Shown: one piece after another, positions 1 through 19,911 of the stretch
Layout of the letters: every line of letters starts with the position of its first letter
Position numbering within the stretch: the stretch's first letter is position 1
From: Streptomyces virus Wollford
Lineage: Duplodnaviria > Heunggongvirae > Uroviricota > Caudoviricetes
DNA length: 60,328 bases
Virus record (IMG/VR): IMGVR_UViG_2974628344_000001
Location: 1-60,328 of that record
Reading direction: 5' to 3' (one strand)
Notes under the pieces: generated by a model
The model's input: the letters and a program-made list of their open reading frames with translations, nothing else
Databases searched by the model: none
What the model was told of the DNA's origin: nothing
Program-made: the position numbers and the translations under genes

Positions 1-10
1 ATTGGGGTAA

Positions 11-24
11 TTGAACGCGTTCAA
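11..24. repeat. Perfect 14-bp palindrome TTGAACGCGTTCAA near the window start
   Basis: Read directly; a related imperfect palindrome TTTGAA-N7-TTCAAA lies at 11101-11119. Confidence 0.7.
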
Positions 25-918
25 AAAGCACATTTCCTTACATTCATAGGTAAGAAGGGGGTTCCAGCCTTAGAATCACAGCCAAAATAGCCAGCCAGCC
101 TAATAAACTATGGATTCAAGGGCATAATGGGCCTCTAAAAACCAGCAAAAATAGCCCCAAAACCTATGAAATCTGTCAATAATCGGCCCAAATCCTTAGA
201 AAACACGGCATTTCTGCACATTTTTGGATGCATTCGTAAAGGGCATGCCAGATAGACCTTAGAATCATAGCTATGCATGCCTATTTTGCCTTCGATTCGT
301 AAGTCAGCCCACTATGACAGCCAAAGTATGCAGCCATGCTATACAGCCTGAGTATCTGATTGAATATTCAGACAAGACATGTTGGTTGTAGTCTTATATG
401 GGGAATTAAAGCCCGGTGGGTATATATGCTTTGTTCTATGTCTTATATAGAAGGACACCTAACACCACCGGCCAACAATCTCTCCTTGTCCTATGTCTTA
501 TATCGTAAAACAGAAGAAGCCTCCCAAAAGCGGGAGGCTTTGTTTGCTTTCAGCTTGGATATGTCTTATATAAGACAGCAGCAATAAATGATCTTCAATT
601 CTAATTGGTAAATCGCCCGGGTTTTCAGGCTCATTCGTAAAGACGCTTGATCAAATATCGCTGGGAAATTTTGGACTCATTCGTAAACGGGAAAAATTCG
701 GACATGATGGGTCAAATCAAAATATAGATGTACAGTGATGATGTTAGTTAGGGTAGGTAATGAACCGGGGCGGTCATCTTCGATGACATTGAAAGGTTCC
801 TGGGCTGCTGCCGACCATCAGCTATTTAACCCCTTGCCCGACTGGACTGATAGGGGGCCCAGGAACACACCTTACTACCCTACTACAATAGTGTAACAAG
901 GCAGTCGCTCTGTGTCAA

Positions 919-1122
919 TCACCACTCAAGTTCGTTCTGCACACAGTAGTGAGAGACGAAGGGGACTACCCACTGCTCATTGAGCAACGATCCCTTGACG
1001 GGAAGGACAAGGACACGGTCCTTGGAGTTGAACTCCATTCGATCTCCGTCGATGTTCTCGAAGATCAGTTCGGCTCGACGGTCATCCTCAAGCACGATGA
1101 CAGTAATGCGCTTAGAAGCCAT
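919..1122 (-). CDS. Hypothetical protein, 67 aa
   Basis: ORF with GGAAGGA RBS and its own promoter. Confidence 0.75.
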   Translation of the reverse strand: MASKRITVIVLEDDRRAELIFENIDGDRMEFNSKDRVLVLPVKGSLLNEQWVVPFVSHYCVQNELEW

Positions 1123-1230
1123 TAGGTTCCTTCCCTAGTTGCTTGATACTAGTCTAACAGAGTAGAAGGGGAGTGTCTACCACCGGGCCAAAATAACCGG
1201 GGCGGCTAGCGGGCTTTCGCCCGCTGCCTG

Positions 1231-1380
1231 TCAGTCCTCTTCGCCAAGATCCTTCAACTTGGCAGTTGCTACCTCGTAGACACCCTTCCAGGGCTCGTAG
1301 TAGTCCTTGGGCTTCCTGTTGCCCATCGCAACCTGACACGAAGCACGAATCAGGCGAAGCTGTTCTACGGTGAACTCCAT
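1231..1380 (-). CDS. Hypothetical protein, 49 aa (MEFTVEQLRLIRASC...)
   Basis: Below the ORF-track cutoff; translated by hand; AGGAGG RBS; flanked by promoter and hairpin. Confidence 0.75.
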   Translation of the reverse strand: MEFTVEQLRLIRASCQVAMGNRKPKDYYEPWKGVYEVATAKLKDLGEED

Positions 1381-1489
1381 GTTTCCTCCTTGGCTGGTAA
1401 TCAGAGTCTATCAGAACGACACGAGGGTGTCTAGCCTTTTTCTATTTGACCGGGGCGGCCAAAAGGGCCCCCGAAGGGGCCCTAGTGAC

Positions 1490-2491
1490 TCAGGCAGCCA
1501 GAGCCAGACTCAGCACTGCCTTACGGATCTTGTTCTTGTCAGAGTTGGTGACCGGGTCGAAACCACTCGCCGCAGCGAACAGGTTATCCACGTTGCCGTT
1601 ACGCGGCATACGGTACCAGTCCAGACGCTCCGTCATGGCATTCAGCGCACCGGCCATCGTGCCAGCCAGAGACAGAGTGGTCTTGGGACCGTCACCAGTG
1701 TCGGTGAAGATGCCCATGAGCAGGTCACGCTTGTTGTCCCACTTGACCTGAGAGCCCTTGACGTTCTCCTTGGGACGCTCGCCGTACACCATCTTGATCA
1801 GCTCATCGAACTGATTCTTGGTGCACTCAGTGCGGAACAGTTCGTTCATCTCGCGCTCGAACTCATCCGCGTAGGCGAAGGTGATGTTCAGCGCCTCCCG
1901 CGCGGCGGCCATGCGTCCCTCGATAGTCTGAGTGTGGCGCATCTTGAACGTCTGCTTCACACCGTTACGGAGTGCGAAATTCAGCGTGTTCTGACACACG
2001 ACACGGACCGGAGTGACACTCGCCTGAACCGCGAGAGAACCGTCGTGGGAGGTGTTGACCAGCAGATACATGTTGGTCACGTCGGAGTCACCAACCAGAA
2101 CCTCTCGGCCGATACGCAGAGATCCGAAGACCTGCGTACCTTCCTTGATAGAACCGGCAGTCTCCCACGTTCCACCACCCGCGAGGATACCGTCACCAAA
2201 GGCGAACAGCTCCTCATTCTGCACCACCTTGTACCGCTCCGCCACGATGCCGAGGCTGTCAGCCTCCTGATCGAACGGGTTGGTACGGATCACCTCGAAC
2301 ATGTTCTTGGAGGTGCGTCCCTTGCGCTCCAGCGGCTCCAGTCGGACGTTCCAGTCGGACAGGTGGGCCAGACGAAGCATCTCGGAGGTGGTGAGTTCAC
2401 CTTCGAAGACGGTGCCGAGGTTGTGCCACGCAGGCTCCAGACGAGAAGCGAACGCGACCTGACCACGGGTACCGATTTCAAGACCGTGCAT
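1490..2491 (-). CDS. DUF932 / TIGR03299-like phage-plasmid protein, 333 aa
   Basis: PAWHNLG, Y.VVQN.E.F, WETAGSIKEG, SHDGSLA, TPVRVVCQNTL motifs; start moved to ATG 2491 (GGAG RBS). Confidence 0.85.
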   Translation of the reverse strand: MHGLEIGTRGQVAFASRLEPAWHNLGTVFEGELTTSEMLRLAHLSDWNVRLEPLERKGRTSKNMFEVIRTNPFDQEADSLGIVAERYKVVQNEELFAFGDGILAGGGTWETAGSIKEGTQVFGSLRIGREVLVGDSDVTNMYLLVNTSHDGSLAVQASVTPVRVVCQNTLNFALRNGVKQTFKMRHTQTIEGRMAAAREALNITFAYADEFEREMNELFRTECTKNQFDELIKMVYGERPKENVKGSQVKWDNKRDLLMGIFTDTGDGPKTTLSLAGTMAGALNAMTERLDWYRMPRNGNVDNLFAAASGFDPVTNSDKNKIRKAVLSLALAA

Positions 2492-2729
2492 TTGTACTCC
2501 TAGTGTAGGTGTTTCTTCTAGCTTACTTGCACGGAGACTACTTGTCAAAGTAGTCGGACATAGCACACTGTTCAGTTGATCAAGCAACAGATCATCCAAG
2601 GCTTCCGGGTTTCCCCTTCCCCCTTGCTGATAGCTCAAGTCTAACAGAGACTAGGCGGGTGTGTCTACATGGTTCAAGGAAGATCCTTTCGCCGGGGCGG
2701 CTTGTGGCCCCCGAAGGGGCCACAGCCAA

Positions 2730-3125
2730 TTAGGGAATCATCCCCAGAGGCTCATAGATTCCCACAATGTCGGAATCCGTCACAGCCGCTACAGACTGGT
2801 AGGTGCCGCTACGCACCTTCTCAGCCGGAACGTCATAGGCCACCACGGAGTAACCCGCAGCGTCCAAGTCATGGCCGAAGTTCTCAAACCACTTGGCCAA
2901 CTGCCCCTCAGAGATCAGCACGCAGAACTCATTGGGGGAAATACCACCAGGAAGATCAGTCCACGGCGTCGGGTGAGACTCGTCCACGTGCTCACGGCAC
3001 AGACGGTTAGAAACCGCCTTGACATTGGGGTCGAAAGAGTCCCAACCCTCACGATAGGGACCAGCCCACTTGCCCGTAAGGTTGCCCTCGTGCTTCGGAG
3101 ACAGGGCAACACGGTAAACGATCAC
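2730..3125 (-). CDS. Hypothetical protein, 131 aa
   Basis: GTG start with GGAGG RBS; own promoter. Confidence 0.75.
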   Translation of the reverse strand: MIVYRVALSPKHEGNLTGKWAGPYREGWDSFDPNVKAVSNRLCREHVDESHPTPWTDLPGGISPNEFCVLISEGQLAKWFENFGHDLDAAGYSVVAYDVPAEKVRSGTYQSVAAVTDSDIVGIYEPLGMIP

Positions 3126-3228
3126 AGCTCCTCCTAGGTTTCCCTGATTGGTAATCCTAGTCTAGCGGATCTGACGACTGATCACAACACATCTTCACAA
3201 AAGCCGGGGCGGCCCGGAGGCCGCTATG

Positions 3229-3576
3229 TCAAGCTCCCATACGAATGATCATCTGCTCAATTACAAATCGAGCAACAGAACACCGATTGTACTCTTCATC
3301 ATTTCGGGTGGTGCCATTAGCTTCCTTGGCAGCCATTGCATTAAGGATAGCAATAGCCAGATCAAACAACGGCTTCTGCAATTCCTCATTCTGGCTACAC
3401 ATCAGATATGCAAGGACATGGGGATTGAAGGTGCGCTTATCGAGAACGGAAAGGATTTTGTCGGCATCCTTTTCCGCCGGGCTTCGACGCGTAGAGGTAA
3501 CCCGTGCACCCTGATAAACATCAGGAGCAATTACCGAGACTTCAGCCTGCCGAAAGATATCACCGTTGTTGGCCAT
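3229..3576 (-). CDS. Hypothetical protein, 115 aa
   Basis: GGAGG RBS. Confidence 0.75.
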   Translation of the reverse strand: MANNGDIFRQAEVSVIAPDVYQGARVTSTRRSPAEKDADKILSVLDKRTFNPHVLAYLMCSQNEELQKPLFDLAIAILNAMAAKEANGTTRNDEEYNRCSVARFVIEQMIIRMGA

Positions 3577-3618
3577 TATGCCTCCAATGGAACGGCCCCC
3601 TTTCGGGGGCCGTTAGGC

Positions 3619-3786
3619 TTACAGATTCGTCGGATCGAAATCCTTTGTGTTCCCATATCCATCGCTTACGCTAATGGACATTCCGAGGACACGTGCCAGG
3701 AAGGGCCCTAGAGCTTGGACCATTTCCCAAGCCTGGTCTTCCTCTTGATCATCTCTGGGCTCGATTTCGAGCATGATGTTGGCCAT
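3619..3786 (-). CDS. Hypothetical acidic protein, 55 aa (MANIMLEIEPRDDQEEDQ...)
   Basis: Translated by hand; fills the gap between the Lsr2-like gene and a hairpin. Confidence 0.6.
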   Translation of the reverse strand: MANIMLEIEPRDDQEEDQAWEMVQALGPFLARVLGMSISVSDGYGNTKDFDPTNL

Positions 3787-3795
3787 AGGTCTACC

Positions 3796-4308
3796 TTACT
3801 TGACCTTGACCTCAACGTCAAGACCGAGCACCACCGGGCTACCACACTTGCAGTAGGCCAGGGAGTAACCGCACTTGCACGCCTCATTCTCAGAGAAGCG
3901 CCACACCTTACCCTTACGGTCAACGGCCACGTACTCCGTGGAAGCGGAGCGGGAACGGGCCGCATGCGGACGAACGTCCTTACCGGTCGGGGCCTTCACA
4001 CCGGAAACGGCCTCCGCCTTCACATCCGGGTTGGCCTTTGCGTACGCCTCCAGGATCTCACCGGAGATACGGCCACGGGAGTTGATCTCGATACCGTTGG
4101 CCTTCGCCCAGGTGCGAACCTTCTTTGCGTCATAGGCACCGGCCTTGACCGCAGCGGGCTTGTTGGTGCGGACCACGCCCGTGTCAGCGAAGACGGTACC
4201 CGCAGCCTCAGCAGCGTCGATAGCCGCGTACGCCTCCTTGGACATACGACCACGCTTGCCCATGATCGCCAGGCCGAGGGAAGCCGCGTACTCACGCTTG
4301 GTCTGCAT
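3796..4308 (-). CDS. lsr2: Lsr2-like DNA-binding protein with two RGR modules and a Cys-rich C-terminus
   Basis: VRTWAKANGIEINSRGRISGEILEAY matches the Lsr2 C-terminal domain; second REYAASLGL..KRGRMSKEAYAAI near the N-terminus. Confidence 0.8.
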   Translation of the reverse strand: MQTKREYAASLGLAIMGKRGRMSKEAYAAIDAAEAAGTVFADTGVVRTNKPAAVKAGAYDAKKVRTWAKANGIEINSRGRISGEILEAYAKANPDVKAEAVSGVKAPTGKDVRPHAARSRSASTEYVAVDRKGKVWRFSENEACKCGYSLAYCKCGSPVVLGLDVEVKVK

Positions 4309-4423
4309 TTGGTTCCTTCCGTTGTCCTTCGTTGTGACTTAAGCATAACAGAGCAAGGGCAGCAGGGTCAACATGAAATTATGTCCGATTTGTCTCGCCG
4401 CCCCGGCCCCGGAGGGCCTTTCC

Positions 4424-5164
4424 TTATTTTGCCCGGCGCTTAGAGACCTTAGAAGCAAAGCGAATGTCTGCCTTACCAAAGATGCACAGTCCACACGTTA
4501 CGCATGCACCGCCATCCTTAGTGATAAGGGGAATACGCTTGGCATTCTCAGGACAGATGGCACCGGGCTTACCAGTGTTGGTAAGCATGAATTCCTTACC
4601 AGTCTCATGAGTCTCAGAGAGATAGGCAAGGCGCACAGACGGGTACTCAGACTTTGTTTCCAAAGCCTTTTGCTCATTCTCACCATCTACACTCAGGTAA
4701 ACAGAGAGATTGGGAATTCCCACGATGTACTGGACATACTCGAATGAACGAGTGTAAATCCAGAATTGCACATCGGTGAATCGTTCGGCAATCCAGCCGA
4801 TTGCGTGCGCGTAGTCCGCAGAGAAGATATCACCATCTGCGTGCCAGCGAAATACCTTGCTGATGTTGTTCTTTGCGCATTCCTCAGAGAATTCCTCAAT
4901 CATTTCGATGAGGAGGTCCATCATTTCACTGAGAGATGCATCTTTCAGCAATTCCCAGTTGTGCAGTGCAAGGTTACGGAATGCCGGATACTGCCTTTCA
5001 AGCTTACCGGCATAGCAGACAGTCTCACAGACCTTTGTGGCACCGGGGCAAGAATACGCAGTACCAGACGGCAGAGAGAATGCGTTTTTGAGCAACGACT
5101 GAGTGCCGTTGGCGTTTACGCGGGCAGTGGTCTTGCGATCGTTGGTCCTCTTGAGTCTAGCCAT
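4424..5164 (-). CDS. Gp88-like (radical-SAM-related) phage protein
   Basis: FSLPSG..SCPGAT.VC..VCYA, FRWHADGD, FWIYTRS, CxxCGLC motifs. Confidence 0.7.
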   Translation of the reverse strand: MARLKRTNDRKTTARVNANGTQSLLKNAFSLPSGTAYSCPGATKVCETVCYAGKLERQYPAFRNLALHNWELLKDASLSEMMDLLIEMIEEFSEECAKNNISKVFRWHADGDIFSADYAHAIGWIAERFTDVQFWIYTRSFEYVQYIVGIPNLSVYLSVDGENEQKALETKSEYPSVRLAYLSETHETGKEFMLTNTGKPGAICPENAKRIPLITKDGGACVTCGLCIFGKADIRFASKVSKRRAK

Positions 5165-5357
5165 GAACAATCACACTCCTGTGCGCTGCGTACGAAATGA
5201 CACGATCGCGATGCTCACCGTCCACAAGGAAGATGACCATGCGCTTGCCGTTGTGTGTGCTGACATTCTGAACGATCTTGCCGGTCATGTAGTAACCGGA
5301 GTCGAAAGTGATCGTTTCCCCGACCTGGATAGTGCTAAACGGCTTGCGTTCGCTCAT
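5157..5357 (-). CDS. Hypothetical protein, 66 aa, probably leaderless
   Basis: ATG lies 7 nt downstream of -10 TAGGAT; no SD. Confidence 0.7.
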   Translation of the reverse strand: MSERKPFSTIQVGETITFDSGYYMTGKIVQNVSTHNGKRMVIFLVDGEHRDRVISYAAHRSVIVHG

Positions 5358-5458
5358 GGATCGATCCTAACACACGTAAACGTAAGAGGTCAACACTGTT
5401 GGATCAAGATCTTTTGACCGGGGCGGCCAAAAGGGCCCCCGAAGGGGCCCTAGGCTGC

Positions 5459-5623
5459 TTACTTGGGAGCGACCTCGAAGTCGTCCAGGCCGAGCGCGAC
5501 GGTCTCGAACTCATTGGCCATGTTGTCGGTCATCTCGGCGGTGATGTTGCGGACGAGAGCGACACGCACGGTGGCGGTCATGGGGGTCTCGGCGATGACC
5601 TTGGCGATGGCGATGGCCTTCAT
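5459..5623 (-). CDS. Hypothetical protein, 54 aa (MKAIAIAKVIAETPM...)
   Basis: Translated by hand; GC3-rich codons; own promoter 5653-5681. Confidence 0.7.
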   Translation of the reverse strand: MKAIAIAKVIAETPMTATVRVALVRNITAEMTDNMANEFETVALGLDDFEVAPK

Positions 5624-5678
5624 TTTGGAGCCTTTCGTCGTGGTGTGTTCTCAGTCTAGCGGATGGAACTTGGTTTGT

Positions 5679-5792
5679 CTAGTCGCAGTCGACCAGAATT
5701 TCCATGTCGTCCAGGTGCGCGTCCGCGCCCTCAAGCTCGTCCAGGCGAGCCATCGTGATGGCCTCTTCGAGAGAAACGTCGTCGTACATCAT
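5679..5792 (-). CDS. Small acidic protein, 37 aa (MMYDDVSLEEAITMARLDELEG...)
   Basis: Translated by hand; AAAGGGG RBS; promoter 5835-5863. Confidence 0.6.
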   Translation of the reverse strand: MMYDDVSLEEAITMARLDELEGADAHLDDMEILVDCD

Positions 5793-5922
5793 TGCCCCTT
5801 TCTTGGGGAGGTTTCCCTCCCTTTCGATGTTCTAAGTCTACATGAACGCAAGGACAGTTGCAACACGGTCTGAGCATGATCTTTTCGCCGGGGCGGCTAG
5901 CGGGCTTTCGCCCGCCGCCTAC

Positions 5923-6276
5923 CTACCTACGGCCCATCGGAAGGCCCTGGGCCTTCGCTGCCCTTTCCAGGCTCCATCCGTTGTAGGTGTCCTTGGGGGT
6001 GATGTATTCGATCTCCGTGATGCCCAGCAGGTACGCGACCAGCAGCCTGTGGTGGCCGTTGGTGATCATGTTCTTGTCCGGGTTCCACACGATCGGCGTC
6101 TTGATGCCGTCCTTGGCAATGCTTTCGATGAACTCAAGCGGCAGCTCATCGAACTTCTCAAGCATGCAACGCTCCTTGTCGTCCATCGCGCTGCTACCGA
6201 ACAGCTCCTCACGGGTGTTGCGGGCGTCACCAAAGATCGCGGTGTGCCAGAGCTTTTCGACGTTGGCCTTCGGCAT
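5923..6276 (-). CDS. ParB/sulfiredoxin-like N-terminal domain protein
   Basis: FIESIAKDGIKTPIVW...ITNGHHRLLVAYLLGITEI. Confidence 0.75.
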   Translation of the reverse strand: MPKANVEKLWHTAIFGDARNTREELFGSSAMDDKERCMLEKFDELPLEFIESIAKDGIKTPIVWNPDKNMITNGHHRLLVAYLLGITEIEYITPKDTYNGWSLERAAKAQGLPMGRR

Positions 6277-6401
6277 CTTCACTCCTAGTTCTTGCCCGGC
6301 TGATAGCTCTAGTCTAATGGAAGATGTGATGAGGAGTCAACTCAACTCATCAAGATCTTTTGACCGGGGCGGCTAGGCCGCCCGAAGGCGGCCCGGCGCT
6401 A

Positions 6402-6545
6402 TTAGATCCAGTTCCAGCCGATGTGCAGCAGGGCACCGAGGATCATGATGCCCAGGACACCGAGTCCGAGATTCACCAGCATCAGCAGTGCGGCAACCGG
6501 ACCAGAAACACCCTCGACGTTGATGACACCCTTGACGTTGTACAT
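6402..6545 (-). CDS. Small membrane protein, 47 aa
   Basis: Hydrophobic stretch AALLMLVNLGLGVLGIMILGALL; GGAG RBS. Confidence 0.65.
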   Translation of the reverse strand: MYNVKGVINVEGVSGPVAALLMLVNLGLGVLGIMILGALLHIGWNWI

Positions 6546-6660
6546 GATCACTCCATGAGGCTCAGAGGAATTTGAAGGATTGTCCAGCAGCAGAACACTA
6601 GGAATCCTATCAGCCAAGGTATCAAGATCACAAGACCTAGGCCACATAGGATTTTGAGGA

Positions 6661-6801
6661 CTAGCCCCAAATCTCCCGCTTGCTCTTCATCTCGGAGAGG
6701 TAGCGGTCACGACGGCTCTGACGGTACTTCTTGATCTTCTTGATCCGTCGGCTGGTCTGCTTGGCACGTTCCCTGCGAAGCTCGGAAAGTTCGGCTCTCA
6801 T
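6661..6801 (-). CDS. Highly basic protein, 46 aa (MRAELSELRRERAKQTSRRIKKIKKYRQSRR...)
   Basis: Translated by hand; AAGGGAAG RBS; promoter 6825-6854. Confidence 0.7.
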   Translation of the reverse strand: MRAELSELRRERAKQTSRRIKKIKKYRQSRRDRYLSEMKSKREIWG

Positions 6802-6913
6802 GTTCTTCCCTTCGTTCTGACTCCAGTATATACACAAGGATGGGTGTGGTGCAACAGATCAGAGGAAGATCTTTTCGCCGGGGCGGCTAGGCCGCCCGTA
6901 GGCGGCCCGCTGC

Positions 6914-7249
6914 TCAGTTGTCCATGATCTTGTGGTAGAAGTCCTGGTAGGAACGCGCGCCGTCGATGGCGTCCTGAAGGCTGTCATAGCCCATGAAGTC
7001 GTCCAGAGTCACGATCTTGAAGAAACCGTCCACGTTGCGAGTTGCGTAGCGAAGGCTGTACGACTTGGCTTCCGGGTCGTCCATGTACTCGGACGTGATG
7101 AAGATCGTCCCTCGCTGGCCGATGGGGAAGAGGTCGTTCTCGTAGAGTTCCGTGTTGAAGAACCGCATGGAGGAACACTTGAACCACTCACGCGCGGTGC
7201 TGTTGGACTCGCGGGAAGCCTTCTTGATCTGGTCCATCGTGGAGAACAT
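6914..7249 (-). CDS. Hypothetical protein, 111 aa
   Basis: GAGG RBS; own promoter. Confidence 0.8.
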   Translation of the reverse strand: MFSTMDQIKKASRESNSTAREWFKCSSMRFFNTELYENDLFPIGQRGTIFITSEYMDDPEAKSYSLRYATRNVDGFFKIVTLDDFMGYDSLQDAIDGARSYQDFYHKIMDN

Positions 7250-7368
7250 TTACGTTCCTCTCGCTCGGTGTAAGACGAGTCTAACACAGTCCAGGAGCAG
7301 AGTACAACATCATTTTCCAAGATCTTTTAACCGCCCCGGCCAAATGGCCCCCGAAGGGGCCATTGGTT

Positions 7369-7635
7369 TTAGAGTCGGGGCTTCTTGCCGAGACCCATGC
7401 TCTTGCCGAAGTCGTAGGACTTGCCCTTGACCTCGTAGCCAGCAGAGACGTTGTTCACGCGGAACGGAGCGGCCCGGTGCAGAGCGGACAGCTTCTCAGC
7501 AGAACCCGCAGCTTCAACGTAGACCTTTCCGCTCATCTCGTCCACTCGGTAGTCGAACTCGACTCCGTAGACCGTGGCCATCGTGATCACGACGCCAGCA
7601 CGCTTGATGGAAACCTCACCCATGAGAACGGCCAT
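7369..7635 (-). CDS. Hypothetical protein, 88 aa
   Basis: GAGG RBS; own promoter. Confidence 0.75.
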   Translation of the reverse strand: MAVLMGEVSIKRAGVVITMATVYGVEFDYRVDEMSGKVYVEAAGSAEKLSALHRAAPFRVNNVSAGYEVKGKSYDFGKSMGLGKKPRL

Positions 7636-7668
7636 TTCAGTTCCTCTCGTTGGTGTTCTTGAAGTCTA

Positions 7669-7911
7669 TCAGAGGATGCTCAGCTTGCCAAGCTCTTCTG
7701 TGGTGACAATCTCGGGGTTGTTGAAGAAACCGTGGTCGGGACGAATCCACGCGGTGTCAGAAGTCGTCTTTACGATCTTACCCGTGTAGACCTTGAAGCC
7801 ATCGAACTCGATGCCCTCATTGATCATGAACTGGTACGAACTCCGCATGATCACGACATGGGAGCCGATCTTGAACTTACGCTTATTGGCGATCTTGCGA
7901 AAGATGTTCAT
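7669..7911 (-). CDS. Hypothetical protein, 80 aa
   Basis: GGGAG RBS; own promoter. Confidence 0.75.
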   Translation of the reverse strand: MNIFRKIANKRKFKIGSHVVIMRSSYQFMINEGIEFDGFKVYTGKIVKTTSDTAWIRPDHGFFNNPEIVTTEELGKLSIL

Positions 7912-8018
7912 GATCTCTCCCTTTCGTTAAGACGAGTCTACACTACACAAGGGACATGCGCAACACATTCTCAAAAGAGCCGGGGCGGCCAAATGGCCCC
8001 CTTTCGGGGGCCAGATGA

Positions 8019-8561
8019 CTAGCAGTTGCCGCCGCAGCAGGAGTAGCAACCCCCGCAGTCGTTGCAAATGTCGCTCCGGTCGTTGCTGCTGTTGCTCTTC
8101 TCGAAGACTTCCTTGGGGGTCGGCGTGGCCTTCGGCTTGATCATTCCCTCGACGGACTCGATCTTTTCCCAGTCGAGCTGATCGGTCTTGCCCATCGGCG
8201 TGATGTTGTCCACCACGGTCTTTGCCTCCAGCAGGCCCAGACCCTCGAAGCGCTCACGCAGCACCTTGATGCAGGTAATCTTGCGGGTGTAGTCGCGCTC
8301 GGTGAAGTTCATGATCGCCCAGGTCGTGACCTCGATCATCTTCGGGTCGAAGGTGCCTCGCACGGAGTTCTGACCGGCCTTGACACCGGCCTTGTACTGC
8401 TCCTCGCCGTACGCGTACTTCTGGTCCTCCAGCTTGTAACGCTCGTCGGCGAACTTGTTGTTGTAGGCGCGGTCCAGCTCCCCGGCGAAGCGGAGGGCGA
8501 GTTCGATCTTCGTGTCGGGGAAGTAAGCGGCGACCTTCTGAACGACCTCGATGCGCTCCAT
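8019..8561 (-). CDS. Protein with a ribosomal L7/L12 C-terminal-domain-like motif and Cys-rich tail
   Basis: RKITCIKVLRERFEGLGLLEAKTVVD resembles bL12 KIxVIKxVRExTGLGLKEAKxLVE; start moved to ATG 8561 (AAAGG RBS). Confidence 0.65.
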   Translation of the reverse strand: MERIEVVQKVAAYFPDTKIELALRFAGELDRAYNNKFADERYKLEDQKYAYGEEQYKAGVKAGQNSVRGTFDPKMIEVTTWAIMNFTERDYTRKITCIKVLRERFEGLGLLEAKTVVDNITPMGKTDQLDWEKIESVEGMIKPKATPTPKEVFEKSNSSNDRSDICNDCGGCYSCCGGNC

Positions 8562-8707
8562 GATCGGACCTTTCTCTCTAGGGGGCCTTTCCCCCTTTCG
8601 ATGTACTAAGCTTAGCACGGTCAGATGGGCCATGTCCAACCCCTCTGGCCAACTAATTTCCAAGATCTTTTGACCGGGGCGGCTAGCGGGCTTGCGCCCG
8701 CCGCCGG

Positions 8708-8989
8708 TCACTCATAGGGAACGTAGTCACTCTCACGCTGAGCAGGCTTACGCTCGATACGGTCGATGTACTGACCGATGCTGTTGACGGACCAAATGGG
8801 CTTCATGCCCTTGTTGCTGTACCGCTTCTTGGTCAGTCGCTTGAGAACCGTTTCGGCCTCACGACGGGAACGCACCTTGATGGACACGCAGGGCTCACGG
8901 TAGTTGTACCAGATGCCGCCCTCTTCGGGTCCTCCATACGCACGATCTTCGAGGTAGATGTTGGCGTAGAAAGGCTTCGTCGTCTTCAT
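8708..8989 (-). CDS. Hypothetical protein, 93 aa (YGGPEEGGIWY motif), probably leaderless
   Basis: ATG lies 8 nt downstream of -10 TAGACT. Confidence 0.7.
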   Translation of the reverse strand: MKTTKPFYANIYLEDRAYGGPEEGGIWYNYREPCVSIKVRSRREAETVLKRLTKKRYSNKGMKPIWSVNSIGQYIDRIERKPAQRESDYVPYE

Positions 8990-9067
8990 AGGGATGAGTC
9001 TAGCAGAGTATCGGGCCGGTGGCAACAGATTCTCAATTTAGCCGGGGCGGCCCCGAAGGGCCTCCAA

Positions 9068-9196
9068 TCAGTCATAGATGTACTTGACCTGAGTCTTGCC
9101 GCACTTGATGCATTCGCGAGACTGGAACTGAGGGATCTTGGTGTACAGCTTGTACTGAACAACTACCCACGAAGACCACTTGTGCAGACAGATCAT
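9068..9196 (-). CDS. Small putative zinc-binding protein, 42 aa (CLHKW...RECIKCGK)
   Basis: GGGAGG RBS; own promoter. Confidence 0.7.
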   Translation of the reverse strand: MICLHKWSSWVVVQYKLYTKIPQFQSRECIKCGKTQVKYIYD

Positions 9197-9302
9197 TTTG
9201 TCCTCCCGATTTCTTAGCTCCAGTCTACACCATCGATTTCTTAGTTGCAACATGTCTGCGTAGATTTTTAGTCATCTAGCCGGGGCGGCTAACTTTTTAG
9301 TC

Positions 9303-9367
9303 AAAATTCACCCCTATGATTCGAAGGAAATTAGGCTAAAAACCTAAGAATCATAGGGGTGAATTTT
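9303..9367. repeat. 20-bp perfect inverted repeat with an inner 5-bp stem
   Basis: AAAATTCACCCCTATGATTC (9303-9322) / GAATCATAGGGGTGAATTTT (9348-9367); inner TTAGG/CCTAA. Confidence 0.85.
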
Positions 9368-9381
9368 CAAGACCAATTAAT

Positions 9382-9612
9382 TCACTGGTCCCAAAGCTCC
9401 TGAACCTTCGCCCAGAAGCGATGAATTCGAGGATCGTTGTTGTCGTTCGCGTAGAAGGGATCGCACGGAGTGCCTGTCAGCGTTTGTGCGATATCGGGCC
9501 TTACGCGGGCAACTCGATTGAAGCAGAATTGCCCATAACGCTGCTCGTCGTTGTCATTCTGATACGCCCAGATGGTATCGAGAATGAATTGGTTCAAGGA
9601 AACCTGCGGCAT
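9382..9612 (-). CDS. Hypothetical protein, 76 aa
   Basis: Start moved to MPQVSL; GGAAG RBS. Confidence 0.7.
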   Translation of the reverse strand: MPQVSLNQFILDTIWAYQNDNDEQRYGQFCFNRVARVRPDIAQTLTGTPCDPFYANDNNDPRIHRFWAKVQELWDQ

Positions 9613-9613
9613 T

Positions 9614-9793
9614 TCACTTCCAATCGGTGGGAACTTGCCTGCCACTGGTAAGCATTGTGTCGAGTGTGGTGATCTGCTCGATGATTCCGAGGGCCAATTG
9701 CCTCTCTTCACCTACAGAAGTGGCATTCCAGTAGCGCTCAATTCCTTCACGAATCTTTTCGAGCTTCTTTTGTGCGTATTCCTCGGGGGACAT
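9614..9793 (-). CDS. Hypothetical protein, 59 aa
   Basis: Start moved to MSPEEY; GGAAGGA RBS. Confidence 0.7.
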   Translation of the reverse strand: MSPEEYAQKKLEKIREGIERYWNATSVGEERQLALGIIEQITTLDTMLTSGRQVPTDWK

Positions 9794-9995
9794 ATTTTTC
9801 GTCCTTCCCACTACCACAAAGGCAGTATTTGGAATGTTTCGCTTCCACCGGGCGAAATCCGCTTTCGCTGTACTTTCGAAGGAGAATTTGCAGATTTCCC
9901 GAAGAAATAACGCCCGTTTCGGAAAAGAGTCCGTTCTTTTCCAGTTTGAGGGTAAGAGAATGTGTCAGAACGGATTTGGCCTTTTTCTTGAACAT
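9747..9995 (-). CDS. Hypothetical protein, 82 aa, with a SEC-C-like CLCGSGK motif
   Basis: AGGGGGAAG RBS; overlaps the next gene by 47 nt. Confidence 0.45.
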   Translation of the reverse strand: MFKKKAKSVLTHSLTLKLEKNGLFSETGVISSGNLQILLRKYSESGFRPVEAKHSKYCLCGSGKDEKYVPRGIRTKEARKDS

Positions 9996-10040
9996 TCTTC
10001 CCCCTATATGGGGGATACCCGTAGATATCCCCCATATGAG

Positions 10041-10193
10041 TTACGCCAGTTCGGAAACGTGCGGGTAAGCGTCCCAGTCCATCTCTACGGTACGCTCATC
10101 CTCCCTCACCGTGGATACGGTAAGGCTGGACACGGAAACCAGGCCCTCAGATACGGCCCGCTCCAGAAGTTCGAGAGTGGTCAAGTTGATCAT
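10041..10193 (-). CDS. Hypothetical protein, 50 aa (MINLTTLELLERAVSEG...)
   Basis: Translated by hand; GGAAGGG RBS; promoter 10218-10246; 12-bp hairpin at 10007-10037 downstream. Confidence 0.7.
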   Translation of the reverse strand: MINLTTLELLERAVSEGLVSVSSLTVSTVREDERTVEMDWDAYPHVSELA

Positions 10194-10565
10194 TCCCTTC
10201 CGTCTTGGTGTAGTACCAGTCTAGTGGATGTATGAGCACAGGTCAACCTACAACACCGGGCCAAAAAGTCCCCGGAAATTTTTGTAATCTTTCGTACACG
10301 CGCGGGAGATATGTCCCGGAAATTCCAAATGTCCTCGTAAATACGAATGCCCCATATGCGCTATGTACCCCATATGGATGGGTCTGATATGGTATGGCCC
10401 ATATGTACCCTGTGTACCCAATGTCCGTTTTGCCCTATATGTCGGACCGCCCCGGTCGAATCCTTTACCAAGCCGTTACCTAAAAAGCTCAGATTCGGGG
10501 GTTTCCGCGTGTGTGCTGGGGTAGTCTGTAGGTACAACGACAGAGCAAGCCAAGGGAGAGACACC

Positions 10566-11027
10566 ATGATCACCACCACCACCGCCCCGGTTACCCACAA
10601 CGCCAACACCCACCAGTGCAGGGCAGATGACCGCACCGCTGGTAGCGCATACCGGCGTCAGTTGCTCGCTACGGTGCTCATGCTGGCTAGCCTTACGGGG
10701 CACTCGGACGGAGAGACCTACGCGGTGTGTGTGGGGTGTGGTGAGAATGCGTACGTGGGTGGCAACCCCCGAAACATGGACACCCTGAACCTTGGTCACG
10801 TGCTGGCAGACGCTAACGGTGGTACCTACTGCGTGGCGAACATGCTTCCCCTTTGCCGACAGTGCAACGAGGACATGGGTAAGGAAAGCCTTACCGATGT
10901 GCTTGTTCCTCTCTACGACAATCGTTCGATGTGGAACGGCAAGCTGATCAAGGACATGGGCAAGGTCAAGCAGGAGCCGCAGGCTAACCGTGGACAGGCC
11001 CGCTGGAACCGCCCTGAGAGCGTCTGA
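10566..11027 (+). CDS. HNH endonuclease
   Basis: CVGCG...LNLGHVLADANGG...NMLPLCRQCN; start at ATG 10566 after GGGAG. Confidence 0.8.
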   Translation: MITTTTAPVTHNANTHQCRADDRTAGSAYRRQLLATVLMLASLTGHSDGETYAVCVGCGENAYVGGNPRNMDTLNLGHVLADANGGTYCVANMLPLCRQCNEDMGKESLTDVLVPLYDNRSMWNGKLIKDMGKVKQEPQANRGQARWNRPESV

Positions 11028-11042
11028 GAGCCTTTGAGAATA

Positions 11043-11073
11043 GCCCCTAGGTCTGAGTACCTAGGGGCCTTTT
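11043..11073 (+). terminator. Intrinsic terminator after the HNH gene
   Basis: GCCCCTAGGT/ACCTAGGGGC 10-bp stem followed by CTTTT. Confidence 0.75.
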
Positions 11074-11309
11074 CATGCCCTTAGACGGGCGCACAGGGCT
11101 TTTGAACACGGTTTTCAAATGGCCTGCCCTGCCTTGTGGAACCTTCCCCGGAGAGAATGTCAACCCCTATGGGCGCACTAAATGAAATCGTTACTAACTA
11201 TGCGAAGCATGTATCATACATCACAAAAAATTACTAACATTTCAGATTCAAATAAAGATGATCTTGTACAGCACGCTTACAGCGATTAACCGCCCCGGTT
11301 ATTTGAGGT

Positions 11310-11501
11310 TCAGTCTCGCCACAATTCAAATCCGACGATATGCATACATGGTTCAAATCGGGCATGAGCGTCGCATTGACAATTGAAACAATCCGGGGTG
11401 ACCATAATAGTGCTTGGTTCATTTCCACAATACAGACAGCCTGGTAAGCCTGCTTCTGCGAGCTTTAAGCCTTCATAAGATACACAGAAGGCTCGATACA
11501 T
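11310..11501 (-). CDS. Cys-rich hypothetical protein, 63 aa
   Basis: Start moved to MYRAFC; AGGA RBS; CLYC/CxCxC motifs. Confidence 0.55.
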   Translation of the reverse strand: MYRAFCVSYEGLKLAEAGLPGCLYCGNEPSTIMVTPDCFNCQCDAHARFEPCMHIVGFELWRD

Positions 11502-11526
11502 TTGATATCCTACTTGTTTGTCAGTC

Positions 11527-11766
11527 TTACAATTCATTTGCATCACTGTCTGATTCATCTGACATATCCCAACTTGGTGGAGGTCCGGCAATCTTGCCAG
11601 CCTTATGCAATGCCAATAGCTTTACTGCTTCATCTGGATTAATGCCTCTTGCTATGCACATCATAATGTCATAGAGTCTTAGAAGCATGATTGTATTTAC
11701 TACTTCATAGGAGTCTTTATCAAATACATCTGTTTCAAGGGGATCATTAGCGCCGGGCTCGTTCAT
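11527..11766 (-). CDS. Hypothetical protein, 79 aa
   Basis: GGAGG RBS. Confidence 0.75.
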   Translation of the reverse strand: MNEPGANDPLETDVFDKDSYEVVNTIMLLRLYDIMMCIARGINPDEAVKLLALHKAGKIAGPPPSWDMSDESDSDANEL

Positions 11767-13579: not shown

Positions 13580-14095
13580 GACTTCATTCAGACGGAAGAA
13601 TACGACATTCTTGAAGCCAACAAAAGTCTTCCACGGAAAGATCATCCAGCTCACCTTTCCGAACACTGGCATCCTCTTGGGAACCAGTCCATTGGCGCGC
13701 ATCTCTGAACGGTGCACGAAGCGCAGATACAATTCAAACAATACGCCTGCGATAATCGGTGGCGCTCCAAAAAGAACTTTTCCAGGAGTACCATAATTAA
13801 GCAGCGCTGCGTGCTCTACGTTCAGATATACTGACGTTCCTACAAAGGCGTAGGTGGCCAGCTTTGGGGCAAATCCACTGTCTTCTGTGCGGGCGTACTT
13901 GGATGCAAGATCAGCAACGAACAAAGCAGCTCCATCGAATGCGATACTTACTCCAAACGCCAGCTCCTTTGGAACACCGTAGAATTCTACAGCCATTGAG
14001 TAAAGGGACCACCAGCTTAGAGCAAGAGCAACGATAAGAACTGCTCCGAATGATACTGCACCTCGCCAGTCCATAAGACGCTTGAGGTTTTTCAT
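13226..14095 (-). CDS. DUF2637-like multi-pass membrane protein with a low-complexity linker and putative C-terminal helical/HTH domain
   Basis: Four N-terminal hydrophobic segments with ALSWWSL..AV..G.P..LA.GVSIAFDG; C-terminal helical SVSRLVRELWDDG...ANTISVSLSRL. Confidence 0.75.
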   Translation of the reverse strand: MKNLKRLMDWRGAVSFGAVLIVALALSWWSLYSMAVEFYGVPKELAFGVSIAFDGAALFVADLASKYARTEDSGFAPKLATYAFVGTSVYLNVEHAALLNYGTPGKVLFGAPPIIAGVLFELYLRFVHRSEMRANGLVPKRMPVFGKVSWMIFPWKTFVGFKNVVFFRLNEVVTNVTGESLSRKRDKNSDKRRDKHDKSRDKTVMTKNDTPVKETKTVTPVVTPIVTNVTEIPRRDTTDDKSKSVSRLVRELWDDGTRDKAELRKIISDIKGRDISANTISVSLSRLSP

Positions 14096-14112
14096 TCTAC
14101 TCCTTAAATGAC

Positions 14113-14144
14113 AAAAGGCAGGCGGCCCGTTAAGGCCGCCTGCT
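14113..14144 (-). terminator. Intrinsic terminator after the dps-like gene
   Basis: GCAGGCGGCC/GGCCGCCTGC 10-bp stem, CTTTT on the minus strand. Confidence 0.75.
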
Positions 14145-14150
14145 ATTCAG

Positions 14151-14552
14151 TTATCTTGCTGACTCAGAGAACATCCAGAGCCACTTATCGACGCCGCGCT
14201 TAATTTCGATTAGTACATCTTGCGTAGCGAGGTCGTCGGTAATATTAAAGATAGCACCTGAGAGCACCATTGTCAAGCTCTCAAGTGAACGCTTCATTCC
14301 ATTAGTCACCTGGAGAAATGATACTGACTCACCAGAGAATTCGTAAGAGATCTTAGGAGACAAATACATCTCTCTCGCTCTTGCACGTTCTGCTACTGTG
14401 TCAGCATATTCATTGATATCATCATGGAATTCATCCAGCTTCTCGTGAAGATAGAAGAACTCACTGCCTCGGAGATTCCAATGGTTCTCCTTGACTGCCA
14501 AGGAGAGAGTTAGCAACCATTCCAGAATCTCTTCTAGCTTCTGTTCTAGCAC
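14151..14552 (-). CDS. dps: Dps/ferritin-like protein
   Basis: HWNLRGSEFFYLHEKLDEF...ADTVAER and D.AT.D.L...DK.LW motifs. Confidence 0.85.
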   Translation of the reverse strand: MLEQKLEEILEWLLTLSLAVKENHWNLRGSEFFYLHEKLDEFHDDINEYADTVAERARAREMYLSPKISYEFSGESVSFLQVTNGMKRSLESLTMVLSGAIFNITDDLATQDVLIEIKRGVDKWLWMFSESAR

Positions 14553-14763
14553 GCTCCACCTCCTTGATCATTGATTTGATTTGATGATGCATCTCCAATC
14601 CTGGTTTGATATAGATATCATCGGTCGGACACCAGAGATATGGGTCGGAAGATGCATCAGGCTTAGTGCGCAATATTAAGTTATTATGACAATCGGGGCA
14701 TTCCCACGCCGGGGCGAGATCGTCCTTAATTAGCTGATTGTATTTATGTAATTCTACCCACAT
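14461..14763 (-). CDS. Hypothetical zinc-ribbon protein
   Basis: CPDC...CP motif; overlaps dps by ~90 nt. Confidence 0.6.
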   Translation of the reverse strand: MWVELHKYNQLIKDDLAPAWECPDCHNNLILRTKPDASSDPYLWCPTDDIYIKPGLEMHHQIKSMIKEVERARTEARRDSGMVANSLLGSQGEPLESPRQ

Positions 14764-14775
14764 GAATCTAGTCTA

Positions 14776-14982
14776 TCACGCATTTCTCAAATTGTAGAGA
14801 GTCGTGTGAAGCGTCTCTACTGCATCATCTATCGCGTTGTGTAGATTCTGGGTTTCTTGCTGCCATGCCTGATCTGACTCAATAGCCTCTCGCTTTAGAT
14901 CTTCAATAGCTTGATCAGCTTCATAAGCATCCCAGCCACAAGAGATCATGCATTCTCGGATGATTGATTCACATCTTGTCAT
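14776..14982 (-). CDS. Hypothetical protein, 68 aa
   Basis: Start moved to MTRCES; GGGAAG RBS. Confidence 0.65.
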   Translation of the reverse strand: MTRCESIIRECMISCGWDAYEADQAIEDLKREAIESDQAWQQETQNLHNAIDDAVETLHTTLYNLRNA

Positions 14983-15140
14983 TTGATCTTCCCATATTCT
15001 ATAAGAACGATTAGACACACCATACAAAGAGCAAGAACTCCGACGCCCGTTAGAATGTTTGGCCAGATAGCCAGACTAAGGACCATCAGAATAGTCGTGC
15101 TGAAGAGTATTGCTATAAATACTCGTTCCTTATTCGTCAC
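14979..15140 (-). CDS. Small two-TM membrane protein
   Basis: GTG start with AAGGA RBS; two hydrophobic segments. Confidence 0.65.
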   Translation of the reverse strand: MTNKERVFIAILFSTTILMVLSLAIWPNILTGVGVLALCMVCLIVLIEYGKIK

Positions 15141-16851: not shown

Positions 16852-16854
16852 AAG

Positions 16855-16927
16855 ATCCCCGCCTCGGATTCGAACCGAGAATTCTTCCTTACGAGGGAAG
16901 TGTGTTGCCATTTACTACTAACGGGGC
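16855..16927 (-). tRNA. Degenerate tRNA-Thr(CGT)
   Basis: Cloverleaf folded by hand: anticodon arm CTTCC-CTCGTAA-GGAAG, T arm CTCGG-TTCGAAT-CCGAG; G1.A72 mismatch, bulged D-stem, no CCA. Confidence 0.7.
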
Positions 16928-16936
16928 ACAGTGGAA

Positions 16937-17404: not shown

Positions 17405-17444
17405 ATGAGAATAATAACATCAAAGGCGAATTTTCACAAAGGGC

Positions 17445-17999: not shown

Positions 18000-18091
18000 C
18001 GGTTAACCTCCAGTTTGCGGGCTCTTGCCCGGCGTGAGATAAAACTCTACCGGAGTTACCAATTGGTGTCAACCTTGTAACCGTTCTGTAA

Positions 18092-18744: not shown

Positions 18745-18750
18745 ACTTAG

Positions 18751-18820: not shown

Positions 18821-18863
18821 CGTAACACAGCTCAAAGAGCATGTCAACGACGAAAGGACGACA

Positions 18864-19832: not shown

Positions 19833-19911
19833 GCTGCTAGATAAGGTAGCATAGTATAACTACGCGATGATAGGCCGCATGAAAGTGCGGCCAGAAGGAG
19901 TTTTCTTTTTG

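Follow-up and report, generated by a model that had tools for sequence, protein, structure and literature searches.

A recurrent GC-rich palindrome at the joints of early gene cassettes in the terminal repeat of a Streptomyces phage

The early region of Streptomyces virus Wollford, a siphophage of cluster BE (family Stanwilliamsviridae) with a genome of 133,007 bp, is built from small gene cassettes that are punctuated by copies of one short, GC-rich interrupted palindrome, here termed the dyad. The stretch of DNA analyzed (the window) comprises the left 60,328 nt of this genome, starting from base 1. Its first 11,214 bp recur exactly at the right genome end (121794-133007; prefix and suffix are identical over this length, and the record is classed accordingly), and the dyad array therefore sits in a direct terminal repeat (DTR; 1-11214), which holds about 15 autonomous early transcription units. 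Comparison with related phages indicates that the dyad is very likely the joint and crossover point between these cassettes, while the way in which its sequence is kept and changed points to a likely role as a DNA-level protein site. The explanation that we favor, with about even confidence, is that the DTR represents an array resembling the promoter-early stem-loop (PeSL) cassettes of other phages, with the dyad as its invariant joint and as the footprint of recombination focused there.

BE phages carry DTRs of about 11 kb with 20-25 small genes, an lsr2-like gene among them (PMC5764925), and are reported to be virulent and to lack an integrase (PMC10690885). Their gene-content similarity is otherwise even, with the DTRs as the stated exception (PMC10690885), and the relatives compared here differ from each other in DTR gene content. 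No Pfam family was found for 19 of the 24 DTR open reading frames (ORFs) tested, and an Rfam search of positions 1-11600 matched zero families. In the literature, we found neither a description of repeated motifs in BE terminal repeats nor a paper with the dyad motif in phages.

Results

The window contains 18 copies of the dyad, CCGGGGCGG or its complement; on the plus strand, 13 of them read CCGGGGCGG and five CCGCCCCGG. Shuffled sequence would yield 0.11 copies of the exact 9-mer and 0.28 of the pattern CCGSSSCGG. Seventeen of these copies lie inside the DTR and the eighteenth lies 76 bp beyond it (11290-11298), this copy being the only instance of the 9-mer in the remaining 110 kb. In the full genome, the 9-mer with a CCC or GGG center is found 36 times, and the sole other CCGSSSCGG is an unrelated CCGCGCCGG at 107711. 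Specifically, the dyads follow the layout of the 22 leftward genes, the coordinates of which were verified by start and stop codons: all 14 gaps of at least 78 bp between these genes carry one dyad, compared with none of the seven gaps of at most 55 bp. A fifteenth copy lies 3' of the last leftward gene, and three others lie around or within a rightward gene for an HNH endonuclease. The first-pass annotation of the window, made by a model from the letters alone, had reported sixteen copies lying only between genes; the strong repetition stands, the count was slightly low, and the placement applies to 17 of the 18 copies, since the dyad at 10582-10590 lies within the first codons of the HNH gene.

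The crossover role rests on where homology between relatives begins and ends. Across seven DTRs from Karimacvirus, the group to which the window belongs, 40 of 198 merged blastn block ends fall no more than 3 bp from a dyad, compared with five expected under a uniform model (an eightfold enrichment), and 42 of the 130 block ends within 100 bp of dyads lie inside a 15-bp interval around the dyad. The Samistivirus group repeats this enrichment, with 15 of 171 ends at dyads and about three expected. Stronger evidence of crossover than these counts is provided by directionality and by cases resolved at the base level. Specifically, blocks that cover the terminator side end at the promoter-side edge of the dyad (positions 8-10), blocks that cover the promoter side end at its terminator-side edge (positions -2 to 0), and in base-level alignments identity leaps from background to >90% exactly at the dyad. 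A second, weaker cluster of block ends lies in the 3' arm of the adjoining hairpin.

Individual slots illustrate this behavior. The cassette of gene 2 is bounded by a right-hand joint at 1197-1205, where homology with relatives stops at 1205/1206, and a left-hand joint at 1450-1458, where homology with six relatives begins at 1447-1449; between 1197 and 1458, Jollison and BoomerJR carry a different gene, and four phages have a single dyad, which in Enygma stands at 1134 in place of the 1197/1450 pair. At 5888-5896, where the window has a single joint, Enygma, Jollison, TomSawyer and StarPlatinum have one or two additional cassettes bounded by dyads, with the Jollison dyads at 5826, 6457 and 6751 all matching this one slot. 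Homology blocks of three relatives begin exactly at the dyad at 3204-3212, at which BoomerJR has had the promoter module alone swapped, with the dyad as one boundary, and a further block shared with BoomerJR begins exactly at the dyad at 5418-5426. Gene order is otherwise colinear among relatives, which differ by gain, loss and replacement without permutation. Because homology starts and stops at the dyad, cassettes are inserted, deleted and replaced from dyad to dyad. A comparison of breakpoints across related phages, which the first-pass annotation had proposed as a check, thus places indels and replacements at the dyad, and together with the anatomy of the cassettes these motif-bounded changes support the analogy with PeSL cassettes that it had drawn.

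The comparison of DTRs from 19 relatives further indicates how the dyad is read. All of them carry a GC-rich interrupted palindrome at the same place, with arms that are lineage-specific. The window and its Karimacvirus relatives have TRGCCG-CCC/GGG-CGGYYA (type K), and Tomas has GACCG-GCC-CGGTC (type T). Mildred21, LilMartin, Warpy, Daubenski, Persimmon, Evy and NootNoot share TGTCCG-SSS-CGGACA (type S), Samisti12, Cursive and EGole have mostly TGTCGG..CCGGACA, that is, TGTC-N7-GACA (type S2), Anedea and Bmoc have GGGCCG-CCC-CGGCCC (type A), and Coruscant has TGGCGCC-S-GGCGCCA (type C). The arms thus remain palindromic while their sequence shifts in concert over some 10-20 copies, which argues for either a reader of symmetric sequence or homogenization among copies. 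Variants with one mismatch are rare (0-4 per genome, compared with 16-21 exact copies), and those that are intergenic all differ in the center triplet and none in the arms. The perfectly paired stems of the eleven hairpins that adjoin dyads in the DTR comprise at least six different sequences while the dyad has a single one; this free variation beside a fixed element suggests that the dyad is read as a DNA sequence. As RNA, it would fold with only -3.7 to -5.3 kcal/mol in the window's lineage (-3.7 to -10.3 kcal/mol overall), compared with -12 to -18 kcal/mol for the neighboring hairpins. In the type S group, both orientations of the center are about equally frequent on the gene strand, which argues against an RNA-level or polar role. 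The reader is thus probably a symmetric, dimeric phage protein that recognizes double-stranded DNA rather than RNA structure, and the earlier suggestion of a dimeric protein site agrees with arms that are symmetric and particular to each lineage and with a center that tolerates change. The dyad itself is part of neither the promoter nor the terminator.

The centers also bear on the proposal that the dyad is a recombination core that can invert. As the first-pass annotation had noted, the center is flipped at 4398-4406 and 7331-7339, with the usual flanks retained at 7331. Among relatives, orthologous site pairs differ in center orientation in 9 of 166 cases, at three slots. At two of these slots the flipped dyad accompanies a hairpin module, AATGGCCCC..., that is also found at another slot in relatives (the hairpin and flipped dyad of 7331 recur at a different slot in Jollison with 95.9% identity over 49 bp); because the flipped dyad travels with the hairpin, these flips are module replacements. 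In the third, at 765, BoomerJR is flipped in place with both flanks orthologous. The orthologue of the dyad at 5418 is flipped in Enygma and has GGG in Jollison too. No inverted gene blocks were found in DTR comparisons among relatives.

Among the proteins encoded in the DTR, the leading candidate for the reader is the HNH endonuclease gp24 (153 amino acids; 10566-11027, plus strand), since it is the sole DTR family whose classes match the dyad type. This gene is a BE core gene that lies at the inner end of the DTR in every BE phage, with dyads at its promoter and its 5' end; its product is annotated as HNH in all relatives and matches Pfam HNH_5 and HNH below the cut-off. In a set of 14 genomes that covers six types, HNH proteins share 85-100% identity when the dyad type is the same and 56-78% when it differs. 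When 18 DTR gene families were compared over 12 genomes of the Samistivirus group, the least similar HNH pair of one type (85%) was still closer than the most similar pair of different types (78%), which held for no other family (gaps of -11 to -64). The case of Anedea is instructive: this type A phage is genome-wide as near to the type S phage Mildred21 as other type S phages are (median ORF identities of 74%, compared with 73% and 71%), but the HNH proteins of the two share only 61% identity. Bmoc and EGole, which were fetched afterwards, matched the HNH-based prediction, with an A-class HNH and A-type dyads in the former and an S2-class HNH and the S2 pattern in the latter. The catalytic core (CxxC...CxxC and the HNH residues) is invariant across types; the columns and indels that distinguish the types are concentrated in a basic segment at the N-terminus and close to the C-terminus. 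A search of solved structures returned only a weak match, the McrA HNH domain (E = 0.08), and a single-sequence AlphaFold2 model reached a predicted local distance difference test score of just 36. On this sequence-based evidence, the HNH endonuclease is a possible reader of the dyad, and its assignment is tentative.

Other candidates fared less well. The ParB-like gene (5923-6276), which encodes an N-terminal domain only, falls into four deep allele classes (36-45% identical between and 74-100% within classes) that have been exchanged between lineages; Mildred21 and Persimmon, for instance, carry copies that are 100% identical, compared with a genome median of 73%. In a genome-wide screen of Anedea against type S phages, HNH was among the top loci and the ParB-like protein was the strongest outlier (100, 85 and 37%). 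Its A-class allele, however, occurs with S2-type dyads in Samisti12, Cursive and EGole and is missing from the A-type Bmoc, and it was dropped as a reader because its allele classes fail to track the dyad type. The Lsr2-like, DUF932 and GP88 proteins and 14 other DTR families showed no congruence with the dyad type. As such, neither of the two binders named in the first-pass annotation, the Lsr2-like and the ParB-like protein, is upheld: the former shows no covariation and the latter is contradicted by it. An AP2-domain reader, considered because AGCCGCC in some sites resembles the GCC box, was set aside, as PF00847 was absent and the HNH gene contains no such domain. Searches of the 24 DTR ORFs with Pfam and PHROGs revealed no helix-turn-helix (HTH) or ribbon-helix-helix (RHH) domain and no regulator. 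The relative Elmer, which is 97% identical counted from window base 1, is annotated with RecA-like, RuvC-like, DprA-like and FtsK-like proteins, a Holliday-junction resolvase, Cas4, WhiB and three DNA-binding proteins; those annotated as DNA-binding outside the DTR are an HTH protein, two 'DNA binding' proteins and the WhiB-type factor.

The intergenic hinges in which the dyads lie share one anatomy. In the direction of transcription, a hinge opens with a stop codon and a perfectly paired GC hairpin, the loop of which is UNCG or GNRA, and the dyad lies 0-5 nt further on. Next comes either TCAAAAGATCTTG or a T-rich segment, and then the promoter, in which 17-18 bp separate the -35 element from the -10 element TAGACT. 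This confirms the leftward unit described from the letters alone (stop codon, GC hairpin, dyad, often AAAAGATCTT, -35, 17 or 18 bp, TAGACT), and the gaps between dyad and -35 are as claimed there, with 16-17 bp at five sites and 23-26 bp at seven; gaps of 29 and 35 bp also occur. Thirteen promoter matches (TTGACA-like, 16-18 bp, TAGACT) adjoin 13 such hairpins, and hinges fall into repeat families of 40-50 bp that are up to 100% identical. A dyad follows 11 of the 13 DTR hairpins, with little or no T-tract (at most TTTGG between). In the unique region, in contrast, ten tetraloop hairpins were found, all of them followed by a T-tract and none by a dyad. A consensus scan for canonical intrinsic terminators (GC hairpin and U-tract) gave no excess (8 found, 9.4 expected), and no consistent helical phase between dyad and promoter was found.

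All hinges between leftward genes are read on the minus strand, and their dyads have CCC on that strand unless stated otherwise. Gene 2 is separated from gene 1 (1123-1230) by a hairpin at 1208-1225, the dyad at 1197, a -35 at 1174-1179 and a -10 at 1151-1156, and gene 3 from gene 2 (1381-1489) by a hairpin at 1464-1483, the dyad at 1450, a -35 at 1428-1433 and a -10 at 1405-1410. The hinge between genes 4 and 3 (2492-2729) has its hairpin at 2703-2724, dyad at 2692-2700, -35 at 2662-2667 and -10 at 2638-2643. Between genes 5 and 4 (3126-3228), the first 4 nt of the dyad at 3204 form the 3' arm of the hairpin (3209-3224), with the -35 at 3182-3187 and the -10 at 3159-3164. Upstream of the Lsr2-like gene 7, the hinge with gene 8 (4309-4423) has a short hairpin (4405-4418), the flipped dyad of 4398 (GGG on the gene strand), AAATCGGACAT, a -35 at 4366-4371 and a -10 at 4342-4347. 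The hinge between the ParB-like gene 12 and gene 11 (5790-5922) combines a hairpin at 5900-5915 and the dyad at 5888 with a -35 at 5858-5863 and a -10 at 5835-5840, and that between genes 18 and 17 (7912-8018) a hairpin at 7994-8013 and a dyad at 7980-7988 with a -35 at 7958-7963 and a -10 at 7935-7940. A short hairpin (9049-9062) shares 2 nt with the dyad at 9042-9050 between genes 20 and 19 (8990-9067; -35 at 9020-9025, -10 at 8997-9002). Between genes 21 and 20 (9197-9381), a long inverted repeat (about 9312-9358) precedes a dyad at 9280-9288, which forms the 6-3-6 palindrome TAGCCG-GGG-CGGCTA and has no adjoining tetraloop hairpin (-35 at 9245-9250, -10 at 9222-9227).

In one promoter class, an 8-bp palindrome, AAGATCTT (within TCAAAAGATCTTG), lies 2-4 nt past the dyad at the position of an UP element. 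It occurs at 5406-5413 between genes 10 and 9 (5358-5458), where it is flanked by a hairpin at 5432-5451, the dyad at 5418, a -35 at 5388-5393 and a -10 at 5364-5369, and at 6352-6359 between genes 13 and 12 (6277-6401), together with a hairpin at 6376-6393, a dyad at 6364-6372, a -35 at 6335-6340 and a -10 at 6311-6316. The hinge of genes 15 and 14 (6802-6913) carries it at 6866-6873 (hairpin 6890-6907, dyad 6878-6886, -10 6825-6830), that of genes 16 and 15 (7250-7368) at 7319-7326 (hairpin 7343-7364, the flipped dyad of 7331 with GGG on the gene strand, -10 7278-7283), and that of genes 19 and 18 (8562-8707) at 8662-8669 (hairpin 8686-8701, dyad 8674-8682, candidate -35 8633-8638, -10 8609-8614). 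Coruscant has TAGATG-N-CATCTA at the UP-element position, with the gap from dyad to -35 fixed at 24 bp.

Four dyads lie outside these hinges. The copy at 765-773, CCGCCCCGG on the gene (minus) strand, stands alone, 146 bp past the stop codon of the last gene, and no promoter follows it; this copy is kept in place in all lineages, with a flipped center in BoomerJR and in some Samistivirus genomes. The copy at 10447-10455, upstream of the HNH gene, has orthologous copies in all lineages and is followed leftward by CCGACAT and AAAACGGACAT half-sites. That at 10582-10590 falls within the 5' end of the HNH coding sequence and encodes A-P-V of an N-terminal insertion that is present only in the K and A classes. 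The copy at 11290, beyond the DTR, forms the 6-3-6 palindrome TAACCG-CCC-CGGTTA (11287-11301) that had been picked out earlier, and its center is decayed in relatives (CCT, TCC, GGA).

Several further features accompany the array. Between the dyad and the -35, some promoters carry a second motif, AAAWCGGACAT, which is often accompanied by a further half-site that resembles CGGACA or CCGACAT; these promoters include that of the Lsr2-like gene (4375-4390) and the rightmost leftward one (10415-10445). Unlike the dyad arms, this motif is kept in all BE lineages, Coruscant included, and in Samistivirus the promoter-side arm of the dyad is itself CGGACA. A conserved hairpin, GGGAGGGAAACCTCCC (5806-5821), occurs in the 5' leader of a small gene in several BE lineages and may be a translational control element, as its 5' arm resembles a ribosome-binding site. 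The heptamer CCCGGYG overlaps the 3' part of some dyads, yet it is a different, genome-wide signal with a strand bias (57 forward and 18 reverse in the unique region, compared with 5 and 10 in the DTR). The right boundary of the DTR (11214|11215) cuts a palindrome, ATGTAT|CATACAT (11207-11222), which may bear on end cutting. In the 120-kb records of the Streptomyces phages Naboo (PP171442.1, about 57-62 kb) and Mandalore (PP171441.1, about 59 kb), the DTR HNH (76%) and the ParB-like gene have homologues mid-record, at only one place in each, such that either the records are in permuted form or these phages have an early region away from the genome ends. Finally, positions 14000-19900 carry, by the Elmer annotation, four glycosyltransferase genes and an adenylyltransferase gene adjoining ThyX and MutT-like genes, and this cluster may be a module for modification of DNA or the cell wall.

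Discussion

Each early unit comprises one to three small genes between a promoter of host type (TTGACA-like, 17-18 bp, TAGACT) and a UNCG or GNRA hairpin. The available data are compatible with a model in which a dyad-reading protein would bind at the dyads and, if this reader is the HNH endonuclease, nick or cut there. Such binding could focus the general recombination machinery (RecA-like and RuvC-like proteins, Holliday-junction resolvases and a Cas4-type exonuclease) on the joints. Exchange there would give rise to cassette mosaicism and may also aid recombination between the two repeats. Several points weigh against this model. The block ends are not independent between genomes, a 9-bp core alone is short for RecA-type recombination, and many junctions could equally be the survivors of rare microhomology events, the joints being the sole safe places to break. 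In four of five lineages, the center is strongly biased to one orientation, such that polarity could matter, and the satellites MiniFlayer and MulchRoom lack the dyad of their helpers. The link to HNH is correlative and draws on few independent contrasts, of which A versus S is sharp and S versus S2 is quantitative only, with three to five S2-like sites in S genomes. Furthermore, a nuclease that cuts some 34 sites in its own genome would need an unexplained safeguard.

The main rival is a regulator or boundary protein without nuclease activity, that is, a phage or host transcription factor other than HNH for which the dyad is an operator, acting as a boundary or roadblock or in early shut-off, with crossovers as a by-product of invariance. 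We consider this a serious alternative, although an unlikely one. Short sites repeated between actinophage genes, such as the L5 stoperators and the phiC31 conserved inverted repeats, typically serve as binding sites of regulators, and the symmetric arms, the tolerant center, the position between terminator and promoter at every unit, the constant gap in Coruscant, the extra CGGACAT half-sites between dyad and -35 at several promoters and the DNA-binding proteins annotated outside the DTR would all suit an operator. However, the spacing to the -35 falls into classes 7 bp apart that range from 16 to at least 35 bp and are out of helical phase, the dyad lies upstream of the UP-element zone without promoter overlap, the copy at 765 stands past the last gene, no HTH or RHH domain was found among the DTR proteins, and the covariation that is limited to HNH would be left unexplained. 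The earlier proposal of a regulator site for all early promoters likewise sits poorly with the inconstant spacing (16-17, 23-26, 29 and 35 bp) and with the stand-alone dyad that has no promoter. A protein-free terminator part, which would pause RNA polymerase after hairpins without a U-tract, either as an additional small hairpin in the RNA or as a GC clamp in the downstream duplex, has a small probability: the dyad lies 0-5 nt past the hairpin, where terminators of the unique region have their T-tract, can fold as RNA and is followed by a T-run at 3204, 7980 and 9280. A structural role would nonetheless need no fixed sequence, yet dyads are identical within a genome while the adjoining stems vary; in addition, the Karimacvirus stem has just 3-5 bp, both orientations are about equal in Samistivirus, and the copies at 765, 10447 and 11290 stand alone without a hairpin.

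It is improbable that the dyad is a functionless linker left over from an ancestral duplicated cassette and kept uniform by gene conversion among hinges. Hinges form repeat families, recombination among them is evident, and conversion would yield concerted change between lineages, but it has not made the adjoining hairpins and promoters uniform, the arms are palindromic in every lineage despite their changed sequence, and they are never mutated, while the copy outside the DTR has lost its center. Even less probable is the core site of a dedicated, integron-like recombinase that exchanges strands in the 3-bp center, the asymmetry of which would set the direction. Arms around an asymmetric center, copies that lie mostly in direct orientation, dyad-to-dyad indels with one added dyad per cassette and junctions that are sharp at the dyad are what such an enzyme might leave. 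Against it, a six-frame search of the 133-kb genome found neither PF00589 nor PF00239 at E<=1 while its controls were positive, which extends to the whole genome the first-pass remark that no recombinase is visible in the window; the relatives are reported to lack an integrase (PMC10690885), a 3-bp center is unlike the usual overlap of either family, and flipped copies have inverted no gene block. The earlier idea of an invertible recombination core thus lacks support, given the missing tyrosine or serine recombinase domain, the lack of inverted blocks and the finding that most flips are copied hairpin modules. Promoters of phage N4 are hairpins with a stem of 5-7 bp and a 3-nt loop, and a dyad that likewise serves as a hairpin promoter for a phage RNA polymerase would match in geometry and precede every early unit. 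This possibility is hardly credible, as a good host-type promoter already lies at the right distance from the gene of each unit, orientation is mixed in Samistivirus, and no phage RNA polymerase is annotated in Elmer, with a search for PF00940 that was blank, as was its control.

How lytic phages maintain fast-changing early genes without wrecking their regulation is only partly understood, and PeSL cassettes are the one described solution. The reading of the array favored here would constitute a solution of this kind that has arisen independently in an actinobacterial siphovirus and within a long terminal repeat, its new elements being a discrete joint that is read by sequence and a named enzyme as its candidate reader, with classes that follow the joint sequence. 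A more far-reaching version, which we regard as distinctly unlikely, holds that the HNH endonuclease and some 17 palindromic sites per repeat form a dedicated, self-encoded system of cassette exchange, integron-like but without an integrase. If true, exchange would be triggered by a nuclease and completed by homologous recombination, the enzyme and site classes (K, T, S, S2, A and C) would define which lytic phages trade early host-takeover genes, and the same nicks might drive recombination between the repeats for concatemer formation. For phage engineering in Streptomyces, the dyads would mark safe insertion points, with the hinges as ready terminator and promoter parts, and the dyad type could serve as a quick marker of BE phages that are likely to exchange early genes.

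Comparison with known systems

Among known arrangements, the morons of lambdoid phages, which are promoter-gene-terminator units (Juhala et al. 2000), resemble the cassettes in that autonomous transcription units are added between genes without disturbing their neighbors. Morons are, however, scattered single insertions without a shared joint sequence, whereas here about 15 tandem units share one. The stoperators of mycobacteriophage L5 (Brown et al. 1997) and the conserved inverted repeats of phiC31 (Ingham et al. 1994) are reported to bind the lysogeny repressor of these temperate phages; they likewise place many near-identical short sites in short actinophage intergenic spaces, there read by one phage protein. 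BE phages differ in being lytic, without repressor or integrase, and in restricting the sites to the terminal repeat. Specifically, the six-frame search found no integrase and the near-identical Elmer has no annotated repressor, and in the 133-kb genome it detected, at E<=1, no tyrosine or serine site-specific recombinase domain of the kind that an integron-like system would require.

Hughes et al. noted that BE terminal repeats are similar in size to those of SPO1 and T5 (PMC5764925), and SPO1 reportedly carries its genes for host takeover within a group of clustered small early genes (PMC6873191). The likeness extends to terminal repeats of 10-13 kb. Neither SPO1 nor T5, with which no sequence comparison was made, is known to have a shared GC palindrome between units. 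Free-standing phage homing endonucleases, such as those of the T4 seg genes and SPO1 I-HmuI, stimulate localized recombination (PMC3017599) in a manner similar to the one considered here: an HNH enzyme encoded by the phage nicks or cuts DNA at a specific site, and repair by recombination centers exchange on that site. Their target, however, is single, long, asymmetric and absent from their own genome, whereas the putative target here is a short palindrome with about 34 copies in the genome of the candidate enzyme itself, for which the covariation of HNH classes with dyad types would be compatible with a dimeric HNH target.

The closest parallel is provided by the PeSL cassettes, which were described in T4-type myoviruses of Gram-negative hosts and whose authors asked whether a specific DNA-binding protein or recombinase helps (Arbiol et al. 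2010, PMC2839356; Comeau et al. 2014, PMC4122927). In PeSL cassettes, transcription is terminated at the stem-loops, the promoters drive expression and recombination from motif to motif produces mini-circles. In both that system and the present array, small composite motifs of terminator and promoter recur among the small, non-essential genes of a hyperplastic region, close relatives show insertions, deletions and replacements at the motifs, and motif details depend on the lineage. The present array thus has the repeated composite of promoter and stem-loop, the hyperplastic region and the motif-bounded indels, but not the T4-like, Gram-negative origin; because it belongs to a Streptomyces siphovirus of the Stanwilliamsviridae, it is an analogue of PeSL cassettes and not a member by descent. 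It differs further in that it fills a long direct terminal repeat, that an invariant palindrome, described for no PeSL, lies between stem-loop and promoter, and that junctions fall at this palindrome rather than at the stem-loop or an AT-rich region, with a covarying nuclease gene as the candidate helper.

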